A stretch of DNA of 64,000 nucleotides from Candidatus Doudnabacteria bacterium RIFCSPHIGHO2_01_FULL_46_14 (lineage in GTDB: Bacteria > Patescibacteriota > Doudnabacteria > UBA920 > 2-01-FULL-46-14). Shown piece after piece: positions 102-58,962 of the stretch. The stretch spans positions 142,504 through 206,503 of the forward strand of contig MFEK01000016.1 of assembly GCA_001779925.1 (NCBI GenBank), read 5' to 3'. Both the position numbers and the translations under genes were made by a program. A model generated the notes under the pieces. That model was not told the origin of the DNA, made no database searches, and was given only the letters and a program-made list of their open reading frames with translations. The first letter of the stretch is position 1. Every line of letters begins with the position of its first letter.

Positions 102-1271
102 ATGCACATAAATAAAGTTAGTTTTCAAAATTTCCGCAACTTTGGCAGACTGGAATTAAAATTTAATCCTGGTTTTATCGTGCTTGCCGGGCCAAACGGC
201 ATGGGTAAAACAAATTTTTTGGAAGGGCTTTATTGGGGGGCGGTCCTGCGGCGCTTTCCAGGAACAAAACTTGGCCAGCTAATGCGCGACAATGAACTAT
301 TTTACAAAATAAATTTACAGTTTCATTCTAAAGATGAAGAAATATTAGAGATCGTTTCTGAAAGAGAGGGAGAGAAATATTCGGCCCAAGGCCGACCAGC
401 CTCGGGCTGGAAATTTACCTACAGATACAATAACCTCGCTGTGCCGCGCGCGAAATTTGCCGGTCATCTGCCAGTGATTAGCTTTTTGCCGGAAGATTTG
501 AACCTGCTCGGGCACTCACCTGCTGGACGCAGAAGATATTTAAATGAAACCCTCTCTACTACCTCTGCGGAATATCGCCGCAATCTATCAGAGTATGAAA
601 AAACTCTCAAACAGCGAAACGAGCTCCTGCAAAATCTCGAGTCAGAATCAAACAGCGGACAGGACGAGATCTGGAACGAGCGGCTGGCAGAGTACGGCAG
701 TTTGATCATCGCGGAGCGCCAAAAGTTTTTAGAATTCGTAAAAGAAAGATTCGAGGCGGCAACCACAGCGCTGTCGCCAGAATTAACCGGAAGCATGATT
801 GATTATCGTTTTTCCGGAAGCCCTGACAGGCAAGGATTTCTGGCAGAAATCAGCGGGCTGGGAGCGCGTGAAAAAGAAGCTCATGGAACTTTAATCGGCC
901 CGCATAAAGATGATTTTCGCCTCTCCTGGCTTGACCGCGAGGTGATTGGTTATGTGTCGCGCGGCCAGCTCAGAAGCTATACTTTGGCCCTAAAAATCCT
1001 GGAGCGGGAATACATAAAAGACAAGCTCTCTGCCCAGCCGGTCATGCTTCTCGACGATGTGTTTTCCGAATTTGACGAGGCTCACCAGCGCGCGCTTATT
1101 GATTTCCTGCAAACTTTTGACCAGGTATTTTTGACCACAGCACATTTGAAAGAAGTCCAACCCTTTCTCCCGGTAAATTCACAAGTGTACAATGTAAATG
1201 ACGGTACTATTATTCCCTCTCCGTTTCCGCATTTCCCTCCCCTTGAGGGGGAGGGATTAAGGGAGGGGTGA
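102..1271 (+). CDS. recF: DNA replication and repair protein RecF. The C-terminal ~20 aa are read through a GC-rich repeat copy
   Basis: Walker A GPNGMGKTNFLEGL. MHINKVSFQNFRNF N-terminus typical of RecF. SMC-like C-terminal motifs. Tail PLEGEGLREG encoded by repeat 1221-1270. Confidence 0.9.
   Translation: MHINKVSFQNFRNFGRLELKFNPGFIVLAGPNGMGKTNFLEGLYWGAVLRRFPGTKLGQLMRDNELFYKINLQFHSKDEEILEIVSEREGEKYSAQGRPASGWKFTYRYNNLAVPRAKFAGHLPVISFLPEDLNLLGHSPAGRRRYLNETLSTTSAEYRRNLSEYEKTLKQRNELLQNLESESNSGQDEIWNERLAEYGSLIIAERQKFLEFVKERFEAATTALSPELTGSMIDYRFSGSPDRQGFLAEISGLGAREKEAHGTLIGPHKDDFRLSWLDREVIGYVSRGQLRSYTLALKILEREYIKDKLSAQPVMLLDDVFSEFDEAHQRALIDFLQTFDQVFLTTAHLKEVQPFLPVNSQVYNVNDGTIIPSPFPHFPPLEGEGLREG
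1221..1270. repeat. GC-rich palindromic repeat (CCCTCCCCTTGAGGGGGAGGGATTAAGGGAGGGGTG)
   Basis: Near-identical copy at 1569-1613. The two copies bracket the DUF721 gene. Confidence 0.8.
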
Positions 1272-57596: not shown

Positions 57597-57687
57597 GCCT
57601 GTTAATCTCCTCAGAAAACTAAAAAACGCCCTATCAACATTGGCGATTTTTAGTTTAAGTTCGATTGGCCCGCCAGAGGCGGGTAAA

Positions 57688-57759
57688 CAGTCCCACGGGG
57701 AATCGAACCCCGATTCACAGCTTGAAAAGCTGTTGTCCTAACCGTTAGACGATGGGACC
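57688..57759 (-). tRNA. tRNA-Glu (anticodon TTC). No encoded CCA
   Basis: Reverse complement GGTCCCATCGTCTAACGGTTAGGACAACAGCTTTTCAAGCTGTGAATCGGGGTTCGATTCCCCGTGGGACTG folds as a cloverleaf. Anticodon loop TTTTCAA. T-loop GGTTCGATTCC. Confidence 0.85.
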
Positions 57760-58013
57760 ATGTTAACAGAGTTATGAATCCGTTTGAAAAGAAATTCTTT
57801 TTGCTGACTATTGTTTTTTAATTCTATTTCTCTCTTCCTTGCGTCCGTTTTATCAAGATATGCTTCGTAATAGATCAAAGTAAAAGGTCGATAGAACTGC
57901 GTTGATTTTACCTTACCAGTTTGATGTTGTGCAAACCTGGTTTTTAAGTCATCTGTGCAACCAGTATAAATCCATTTTTGTTTTTGACTATGCAAGACGT
58001 AAACGTAATACAT
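57738..58013 (-). CDS. GIY-YIG nuclease domain protein (UPF0213-like)
   Basis: YYVYVLHS...WIYTGCTDDLKTRFAQHQTG GIY-YIG motif. The 3' end overlaps the tRNA 5' end. Confidence 0.6.
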   Translation of the reverse strand: MYYVYVLHSQKQKWIYTGCTDDLKTRFAQHQTGKVKSTQFYRPFTLIYYEAYLDKTDARKREIELKNNSQQKEFLFKRIHNSVNMVPSSNG

Positions 58014-58155
58014 ATTTTTTGTTTTTAGGTAGTTAGTGACCCTGCGGGTCATCACCCGAAGGGTGAACGATGGGACCTCAAAAGCTCACTTAATTTATCA
58101 AAAATAGTAGAGTTGGTCAATAAAAGAAGCCAGAAATAAATCTGACTTCTGGACC

Positions 58156-58962
58156 CTATTTTTGGTATGGGTCCCGAAACCTTTTCTTTATAAATTCCAC
58201 GAACAATGGACAGCTTGGATCATCCTTGCAGCCGCGTAAAATGCCGTCCGCCTCAATGTCGTCATTGTTCAAGGGCTGACCTACCACTCGGAGCGGCCTA
58301 ATGACATTGATGATCATTATTGGCCAAACGCGAAGCTCTTCTTTTAGCCGCTCCTCGTAAACCCTTTGTGTGTCGGTAGAGTTTTCCGAAAAATCGAAAA
58401 ACTCTTTTTTTTGTCCTCGCAGATGAAGGGCTTCATGTACCATACCGTTCATGAACGTGTGCTTTGCGACTCGCGAGTCGTATTTTGTGACCGGATAATC
58501 CACGTTCACGAAGCCCCACAATTTGAGGAGCGAAATCTCGATCTCCATCTTTTGTCCATTATAGCCAGAAGCCATCAACGTTGAGCTTGCACCGGGAAAG
58601 GTGGTCACTGGGGTGATGAGCAGCTCGCCTTTTTTGTTAGCCTCTACGATTCCTCGAAGCCACGCTATGCCGAACGGCGGGTAATATTTATTGCCGATAA
58701 AGAAGGGGTCTGACTCTCCCATTAGTCTTTCAAATATCTGCGCGCCTTCTTTGATTTTTTGCTCCGAGGTCTTTTCGGGGATTGGGATAGGCGAAGGCAG
58801 AACAATGCGGGGGACTGGCTGTGCAGGATACGTTATTCTTTCCTGGCGCAGCGGCTGGGGCTGGGTTATAAAATAGGTGACTGCGATGGCCAGCAGAAGC
58901 ACTGACCACATCCACCAAGCGCGGGCTGAACTGCGGCTATGGTTCCTTATGTTTTTGGGCAT
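58156..58962 (-). CDS. Membrane-anchored putative zinc metallopeptidase (HExxH)
   Basis: N-terminal TM. VHEALHL motif. RBS AGGAGG. Confidence 0.45.
   Translation of the reverse strand: MPKNIRNHSRSSARAWWMWSVLLLAIAVTYFITQPQPLRQERITYPAQPVPRIVLPSPIPIPEKTSEQKIKEGAQIFERLMGESDPFFIGNKYYPPFGIAWLRGIVEANKKGELLITPVTTFPGASSTLMASGYNGQKMEIEISLLKLWGFVNVDYPVTKYDSRVAKHTFMNGMVHEALHLRGQKKEFFDFSENSTDTQRVYEERLKEELRVWPIMIINVIRPLRVVGQPLNNDDIEADGILRGCKDDPSCPLFVEFIKKRFRDPYQK

Follow-up and report, generated by a model that had tools for sequence, protein, structure and literature searches.

A GIY-YIG nuclease gene and a 30-nt double hairpin form a recurrent cassette in tRNA genes of Patescibacteria

A 64,000-nt stretch of the genome of Candidatus Doudnabacteria bacterium RIFCSPHIGHO2_01_FULL_46_14 (GCA_001779925.1; contig MFEK01000016.1, positions 142,504–206,503), which we call the window, carries on its minus strand a gene for a very small GIY-YIG nuclease that runs into the 5′ end of a tRNA-Glu gene. 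The best explanation for this region is that it is one copy of a widespread family of ~0.3-kb cassettes lying inside tRNA genes of the candidate phyla radiation (CPR)/Patescibacteria. The cassette consists of a gene for a GIY-YIG-only nuclease of 80–95 amino acids (aa) and a 30-nt double hairpin. We consider it probable, though well short of settled, that this is a selfish endonuclease cassette specialized on tRNA genes, which would keep the tRNA intact by partial duplication and spread by break-induced copying. An earlier note on this DNA had described a minimal GIY-YIG element tied to a tRNA gene and leaving the tRNA whole, and that picture stands, with a partial copy of the tRNA upstream of the gene and the full tRNA downstream.

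All parts of the locus lie on the minus strand. The intact tRNA-Glu (anticodon UUC; 57688–57759) gives a full-length match to the Rfam tRNA family (63.3 bits, E = 2e-12) and is also called by ARAGORN; the CCA is not encoded after the discriminator base. Upstream, at 58067–58077, stands a second copy of its nt 1–11 (GGTCCCATCGT), identical to the sequence at 57749–57759. This piece is followed by the 30-nt double hairpin (58037–58066; TCACCC-TTC-GGGTGA then TGACCC-GCA-GGGTCA) and then by CTAAC (58032–58036), which by tRNA homology is nt 12–16. Because the intact tRNA begins GGTCCCATCGT-CTAAC, the upstream element is tRNA nt 1–16 with a 30-nt insert at 11/12. An A-rich spacer leads from CTAAC to the ATG at 58013 of the stand-alone 91-aa GIY-YIG gene of Slx1/UPF0213 type (57738–58013; Pfam PF01541). 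Its stop codon TAG (57740–57738) is tRNA nt 20–22, the last 22 nt of the open reading frame (ORF) are tRNA nt 1–22, and the final ~8 residues of the nuclease are a read-through of tRNA sequence. A sigma-70-type promoter-like site (58092–58120; TTGACC-17 nt-TAAATT, with the TG of an extended −10 and 9 of 12 matches) stops 14 nt short of G1 of the partial copy. We take it to be the probable original promoter of the tRNA, which would now drive the partial tRNA, the ORF and the tRNA as one transcript. At a permissive Rfam threshold the tRNA was the sole match at the locus, with no family for the hairpins and no intron family, and the interrupted copy, being without a 3′ part, does not have the form of a tRNA intron of the group I or bulge-helix-bulge kind.

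These coordinates revise the earlier description in several respects. The 11-mer repeat is real (ACGATGGGACC occurs exactly twice in the window), and the ORF does overlap the tRNA 5′ end as proposed. The upstream copy had been placed at 58057–58067, a 10-nt slip, so that the end coordinate given for the region, 58070, cuts through it. The start-to-start spacing of the unit is 318 bp rather than ~310 bp, and the repeat lies 53 nt, not ~45 bp, before the ATG. What had been taken as an 11-bp repeat is really 16 nt of tRNA (nt 1–11 plus CTAAC, nt 12–16) split by the double hairpin. Two small hairpins had been noted and are present, but they had been treated as incidental; they are a conserved double hairpin that interrupts the tRNA piece.

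Taken alone, the number of 11-mer matches across the window is weak evidence, since 15 of 100 shuffles give at least 2 matches at up to 1 mismatch; by an arithmetic estimate, the probability of an exact 11-mer recurring within ~400 nt is ~1e-4. The stronger evidence comes from other loci. The identical protein (P0001) is encoded on 7 contigs, and its neighbours there are the same. In the same samples a 72%-identical homologue (P0002) lies between different neighbour genes, and its locus reads GGCCCCATCGT, double hairpin, CTAGC, ORF, then its own tRNA-Glu starting GGCCCCATCGTCTAGC. P0002 thereby repeats its own 5′-end variant, GGCCCCATCGT, with the same boundaries as in the window. Its hairpins are TCACCC-TAC-GGGTGA and CCACCC-GCA-GGGTGG, the second being changed on both strands in a compensatory manner. 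At locus L005, the piece after the hairpins is CTAGC, nt 12–16 of that locus's own tRNA, and at ~26 further loci the repeat likewise follows the 5′ end of the local tRNA. The own-sequence repeat of P0002 and these ~26 loci count decisively against chance.

We fetched 80 genome loci with homologues of the nuclease, almost all from metagenome-assembled genomes (MAGs) labelled Patescibacteria/CPR or from mislabelled bins. A same-strand tRNA starts ~−25 to +130 nt from the ORF end at 33 of the 80, and the tRNA types at these 33 are Glu (16), Ser (6), Cys (4), Asp (2), Trp (2), Arg (1), Ile (1) and Pro (1). Relatives of the gene beside other tRNAs, of the kind that the earlier note had suggested looking for, thus exist in unrelated contexts at all of these types. 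Another 11 loci have a tRNA call no more than ~600 nt from the ORF, mostly just upstream of the ATG, and 7 more have a partial tRNA with hairpins where the contig end is reached or the tRNA is degenerate, so that at least 51 of the 80 loci are tRNA-associated in all, the majority with the layout of a partial copy plus hairpin. About 26 loci have a partial copy of the same tRNA 40–125 nt upstream of the ATG. The duplicated piece ranges from 8 to ~60 nt and always starts near nt 1 (or, in a mirror form, runs to the 3′ end), and 2–7 flank bases are often duplicated along with it; an 11-bp repeat as the footprint of a fixed-length target site does not fit this range.

The layout also occurs in mirrored, nested and tandem versions. 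The mirror form (L068, L064 and L022) has an intact tRNA, the ORF, and a hairpin with a 3′ partial copy; in one case the repeat is 27 nt long, 7 nt of it being trailer. Locus L036 reads tRNA nt 1–35, hairpin, nt 36–41, ORF, tRNA, nt 27–35, hairpin, nt 36–76, and L021 and L029 are similar: in all three, the two parts of a tRNA interrupted at a single point stand on either side of a hairpin, the ORF, a complete tRNA and another hairpin. At one tRNA-Glu locus (L014, 2380–3200), two different GIY-YIG ORFs stand in tandem with three double hairpins at 11/12, 35/36 and 55/56; the last element of this locus resembles a tRNA but has an aberrant D-arm and is not called by ARAGORN. Partial and intact tRNA copies differ from each other in L029, L014 and L086, differences from which the direction of transfer is not assignable. 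ORF relatedness follows hairpin position and tRNA type: the nearest neighbour of an ORF shares its hairpin site in 23 of 32 cases, a concordance that none of 2,000 permutations reaches.

Some members of the clade lie outside tRNA genes. At L043, L044, L048, L051, L054, L058, L066, L067, L069, L070, L081, L083 and L085 (ORF at ~2501), the gene is bracketed by inverted repeats of the form ACCC(G/C)CACAC... and ...GTGTG(C/G)GGGT, often with a further copy pair downstream, which looks like a second cassette design. Three of the 80 loci (L049, L061 and L073) have a small GIY-YIG ORF inside rRNA genes, flanked by CCCCACACCTTT and AAAGGTGTGGGG inverted repeats, consistent with the non-intron rRNA insertions of CPR (PMC11270868).

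As DNA, the window copy of the double hairpin folds at −9.8 kcal/mol (z = −2.7), with the two-hairpin form as the minimum free energy (MFE) structure; as RNA, the MFE structure of the leader is an alternative cross-paired hairpin and not two hairpins. We defined inserts by tRNA homology alone, as the sequence between two 5-mers that are adjacent in the tRNA and 10–60 nt apart upstream, and tested 24 loci in this way; in 19 of them the insert is a perfect double palindrome of 30–32 nt, which none of 200 shuffles per locus matched. Forty hairpin copies align without gaps and show compensatory double changes in 11 of 12 stem pairs; this set was chosen by a hairpin finder, which makes the percentage of paired bases circular and the covariation alone informative. 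The stems of the two hairpins in a pair are usually near-identical, making alternative cross-pairing possible. The insert position varies by lineage: 8/9; 11/12 (the window, L005 and L014); the D-loop; 25/26; 34/35 or 35/36 in the anticodon; and 55/56 in the T-loop. Across 342 kb of loci, ~48 of ~52 canonical double hairpins lie within 200 nt of a GIY-YIG ORF. Two other folds for the leader were considered and rejected: a UUCG-tetraloop form of the first hairpin, as full pairing is obtained only in the register with a 6-bp stem and a 3-nt loop, and, by eye, a hammerhead-like or tRNA-like fold, as the leader has no conserved core and no 3′ acceptor strand.

The nuclease itself is a single domain. 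It matches Pfam PF01541 with 56 bits (cut-off 22.6; E = 4.8e-15), the match being the only domain in its 91 aa, and the catalytic residues Y5, Y16, G18, R26 and E62 are invariant in 41 homologues. Sequence matches in the PDB are to UPF0213 proteins only (1ZG2, E = 2.5e-7; 1YWL). An AlphaFold2 model has a mean confidence (predicted local distance difference test) of 90.6, and Foldseek ranks 1–10 with this model are 1ZG2 and Slx1 entries (probability 1.00, template-modelling score 0.6–0.66), the I-TevI catalytic domain being matched weakly (probability 0.38). Sequence and model together place the protein in the stand-alone Slx1-like/UPF0213 (YhbQ) clade of the GIY-YIG superfamily. The family is large, with 5,449 clusters at 50% identity (E ≤ 1e-10). 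Neither the PHROGs phage library nor NCBIfam gave a match, and the PADLOC defence library gave a marginal one alone (E = 1e-3). The gene is foreign in composition: its GC content is 34.4%, more than 5 standard deviations below the 48 ± 2.6% of 30 host ORFs.

The likeliest course of spread can be sketched as follows. A single RNA would run from the tRNA promoter through the partial tRNA, the hairpins and the ORF into the tRNA, and the nuclease would break an unoccupied tRNA gene. Repair by copying from an occupied locus would then use the tRNA sequence as homology, one arm being supplied by the partial copy and the other by the intact copy. The truncated tRNA copy would stay at the original promoter and the intact copy would persist. 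Because the intact tRNA is regenerated, the insertion would be harmless; because it would confer no immunity, tandem and nested invasions would be explained. A bolder version strikes us as speculative and rather unlikely: that this is a new homing system in which an Slx1-like nuclease without a DNA-binding domain and the double hairpin recognize structure rather than sequence, with near-universal tRNA sequence as portable homology arms and the hairpin as the cis site. The target would then be DNA that extrudes as a cloverleaf or cruciform where a tRNA gene is heavily transcribed, or would be set by the pseudo-tRNA–hairpin transcript. The tRNA arms that the 0.3-kb element carries could let it cross between distant bacteria while each time rebuilding the gene that it breaks, and the 30-nt hairpin could also spread alone, in frame, into protein genes.

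Several observations weigh against a selfish, homing-like cassette. The nuclease has no residues outside the catalytic domain and no DNA-binding module of the I-TevI or SegB type, so that sequence-specific homing of their kind is not expected. The description in the earlier note of a homing-type element is upheld for the GIY-YIG domain and the tie to the tRNA, with homing itself a putative activity; characterized GIY-YIG homing enzymes do have a DNA-binding domain. Any target site borne by the tRNA survives in the regenerated tRNA, so there is no homing immunity of the classical kind. Since the window's two tRNA copies do not differ, nothing marks either of them as imported. The duplicated flank bases fit local duplication or spread within a population better than import from a distant donor, and the concordance of ORF lineage with insertion site could equally mean vertical descent. 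No relative or copy was found in the viral contigs searched.

The surroundings of the locus add to these points. The Na/Ca exchanger encoded next to the tRNA is 100% identical to a protein of a Candidatus Doudnabacteria MAG, and contigs with exchangers of 84–91% identity have different neighbours, no tRNA-Glu and no synteny with the window; gene order around the locus is poorly conserved even at 84% protein identity. In Doudnabacteria relatives (L096–L098, 4022–4421), a tmRNA gene and not tRNA-Glu follows the exchanger gene. The 268-aa gene directly upstream of the cassette (58156–58962, minus strand) has no Pfam or NCBIfam match, and its product has no homologue but itself in 5.8 billion proteins. 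With an orphan gene on one side and non-syntenic exchanger contigs on the other, no orthologous empty site was found: the comparison of occupied and empty loci that the earlier note had proposed yielded none among the exchanger relatives. Unoccupied tRNA-Glu genes are common all the same. A metagenome scan with the first 25 nt of the tRNA returned 81 tRNA-Glu genes, 46 non-marine and 35 of an AT-rich marine type, none identical to that of the window (best match 90%). Cassette traces are present in 3 of the 46 non-marine genes (L103, L139 and L150), and the other 43 have none. In most such genes the stretch around position 11/12 is thus free of a cassette, which speaks for the selfish-cassette reading.

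The marine set supplies a further point against a selfish cassette. There, an 82–86-aa YhbQ-type GIY-YIG gene (GKGAKFTRGR motif) often lies directly downstream of tRNA-Glu and is followed by conserved genes (contigs L102, L108, L109, L128, L133, L136, L141, L143, L147, L148, L151, L152, L166–L168, L170 and L177). These loci have no repeats or hairpins, and L165 and L173 have the same marine upstream context without the gene. The marine genes are a different, possibly host-integrated subfamily, and we do not count them as the same element; their position beside tRNA-Glu makes a non-selfish link of the protein family to tRNA-Glu possible.

Four other explanations bear on these data. The double hairpin could itself be the primary mobile agent, with the Slx1-like nuclease as a structure-specific helper that cuts extruded hairpins or cruciforms and the partial tRNA duplications as repair by-products surviving only where an intact tRNA was kept. 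We give this a minor but real chance. It would account for a second double hairpin in frame in recF, far from any GIY-YIG gene (described below), for several inserts piled up in one pseudo-tRNA (L015, L021, L026, L029 and L046) and for ORF-less tRNA fragments with hairpins (L103 and L139), and it agrees with inserts mostly at tRNA loop positions, with stems alike enough to form alternative branched pairings, and with branched-DNA nucleases of the Slx1 kind as the closest solved folds. Yet the hairpins are concentrated beside the ORF and not dispersed, many proteins of the same clade are without such hairpins (with other inverted repeats, or in rRNA genes), and a hairpin alone leaves unexplained why the duplicated piece runs constantly to the tRNA end. 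Less likely again is a vertically inherited host operon, in which a GIY-YIG housekeeping factor for tRNA or RNA metabolism would be co-transcribed with tRNA-Glu and the partial tRNA with its hairpins would act as a cis-regulatory or processing leader (an RNase P decoy, or a folding or stability element). The marine YhbQ-type genes, adjoining tRNA-Glu in many contigs with conserved downstream genes and no repeats, point this way, as do the promoter and probable transcript common to ORF and tRNA, an Slx1-like fusion to the TrmH tRNA methylase (PMC1564403), and hairpins that covary as a folded strand would. An operon is hard to reconcile with at least 8 different tRNA species, a layout found in both orientations, different ORFs in tandem at one tRNA, hairpin-bearing fragments that also lie downstream of ORF and tRNA, members inside rRNA genes, the deviant GC content of the gene, and the lack of a cassette at most tRNA-Glu genes with the same 5′ half; moreover, 3′-truncated tRNA pieces cannot fold as tRNA.

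The remaining two explanations are effectively excluded. An exact 11-bp direct repeat flanking a 307-bp segment might suggest a target-site duplication or att repeat left by a transposase or recombinase encoded elsewhere, but we regard this as very improbable: the duplicated length varies and is anchored at the tRNA end, the repeat runs 5 nt past the hairpin insert, terminal inverted repeats are missing from the unit, and neither a transposase nor an integrase is there, the genes called on its two sides being the 268-aa orphan and the Na/Ca exchanger. Integrase islands, furthermore, use the tRNA 3′ end, whereas here the repeat is the tRNA 5′ end and the 318-bp unit holds a single 91-aa ORF. 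That a chance repeat merely coincides with an unrelated small gene abutting a tRNA is barely conceivable; the window-wide count of the 11-mer, not significant alone, would allow it, but dozens of independent loci show the design again, each with its own tRNA sequence.

Other features of the window and its relatives complete the description. The second 30-nt double hairpin (381–410, plus strand) lies in recF (102–1271) and reads TCGGCC-CAA-GGCCGA (TCGGCCCAAGGCCGA) then CCAGCC-TCG-GGCTGG (CCAGCCTCGGGCTGG). It is in frame, adding 10 codons (SAQGRPASGW) within an otherwise AT-richer stretch of recF, and solved RecF homologues have a 10-residue gap near its position. Two strict double palindromes in 64 kb compare with ~0.01 expected by an arithmetic estimate. 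A different, single hairpin of 21–22 nt, CCTGCC-N9-GGCAGG, interrupts the D-loops of pseudo-tRNAs in L016, L045 and L047; it also occurs ~110 nt past the tRNA-Glu of L120 and in frame in a tsaD-like gene.

At the 5′ side of the cassette in the window, a terminator-like hairpin of the 268-aa gene (58125–58150, minus strand) precedes the promoter-like site. On the other side, 4 nt past the tRNA 3′ end, stands a single 15-nt palindrome in the format of half a family double hairpin (57669–57683, minus strand; CCCGCC-TCT-GGCGGG), which may be a right-hand border or a processing or termination hairpin. A terminator-like inverted repeat with a T run (57616–57656, minus strand; 15-nt arms, 93% complementary) separates the tRNA from the convergent exchanger gene. 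A 710-nt contig from another sample (L003), compared with window positions 57600–58260, is identical to the window through the end of the upstream gene, the cassette and tRNA nt 1–72, and past nt 72 differs completely, going on with ACCA and another terminator. The breakpoint, from recombination or assembly, coincides exactly with the 3′ end of the tRNA and would reflect a strain rearrangement, a second tRNA-Glu locus or assembly chimerism; the alternative 3′ flank is absent from the window and from all the loci fetched.

If the proposal of a selfish tRNA-gene cassette is right, the element would be among the smallest autonomous selfish DNA units known, at ~320 bp with one 91-residue protein, and would show how a nuclease without a DNA-binding domain can be targeted. 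It would also account for the many small genes that bear the annotation 'GIY-YIG' or 'excinuclease ABC C subunit domain' in CPR/Patescibacteria genomes, and a strategy so far described in fungal mitochondria, with gene-end duplicates and double hairpins, would be found to reach bacteria and RNA genes as well. A structure-specific or tRNA-directed mini-nuclease could, in that case, serve as a tool. For annotation, the cassettes make pseudo-tRNA fragments and assembly breakpoints at tRNA genes, ORF calls are lengthened into tRNAs, and the 30-nt hairpin adds 10-residue inserts to proteins.

Among known systems, the closest in layout are the mobile endonuclease ORFs (mORFs) of fungal mitochondria, which bring a second copy of the gene end into the gene that they enter, the native end staying behind as a pseudo-piece; cases are known in atp6 of Allomyces and in atp6, atp9, cox2 and nad3 of Glomus, the atp9 case encoding a GIY-YIG enzyme (PMC3630166). 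An endonuclease ORF in a gene, a copy of the gene end that keeps the gene intact and a displaced native fragment alongside are shared with the cassettes, as are an ORF that may continue in phase with the gene or overlap it, repeated invasion, and reshuffling; this layout is found in the window and ~26 loci, and in the mirror forms. The cassettes differ in their bacterial host, in targeting a tRNA rather than a protein gene, in an enzyme reduced to its catalytic domain of 85–95 aa, in a displaced fragment always marked by the 30-nt double hairpin and in having both 5′ and 3′ versions. Whereas the part regenerated by mORFs is foreign, the copies in the window are identical.

The resemblance to phage GIY-YIG enzymes is looser. 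SegB of the T4 tRNA gene cluster (PMC2330249) and I-TevI have the GIY-YIG domain, and spread by a double-strand break and recombinational repair has been proposed for them; SegB is also a selfish gene among tRNA genes. Those enzymes, however, have C-terminal DNA-binding modules and are encoded between genes or in introns, and their target is not duplicated. In sequence, fold and single-domain build, the nuclease is instead like the Slx1/UPF0213 proteins (YhbQ, COG2827; PDB 1ZG2, 1YWL, 6SEH and 7CQ2). Slx1 cuts branched DNA in a structure-specific manner, an activity that would suit a connection with DNA that forms hairpins; the eukaryotic protein differs in needing Slx4 and a RING/PHD domain. 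We know of no established function for the bacterial UPF0213 proteins, and a literature search returned no report that connects them with cassettes in tRNA genes or with repeats that form hairpins. A published account presents prokaryotic Slx1-like proteins as the domain in its minimal, stand-alone state (PMC1564403).

Within CPR, GIY-YIG ORFs occur in non-intron insertions of rRNA genes (PMC11270868), a report that mentions tRNA 0 times. The host group and the kind of small GIY-YIG ORF are alike, but those insertions have inverted-repeat brackets and not partial gene copies with double hairpins. For the hairpins, the nearest parallel is with fungal mitochondrial double-hairpin elements (DHEs), which are regarded as mobile (cited in PMC4618339 and PMC7218506). 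DHEs and GC clusters are likewise short GC-rich units of two adjacent stem-loops repeated in a genome; the bacterial units are set apart by their strict 30-nt format of two 15-nt palindromes, by their concentration inside displaced tRNA fragments beside a GIY-YIG gene, and by their ability to sit in frame in a protein gene such as recF. No description of such tRNA-gene cassettes was found in full-text literature, the coverage of which is incomplete, so that an earlier description is possible. The cassettes thus belong to an already known kind, mobile endonuclease ORFs with gene-end duplication combined with double-hairpin repeats; their novelty lies in the bacterial host, the tRNA target, an Slx1-like enzyme without any added domain, and the strict 30-nt hairpin.

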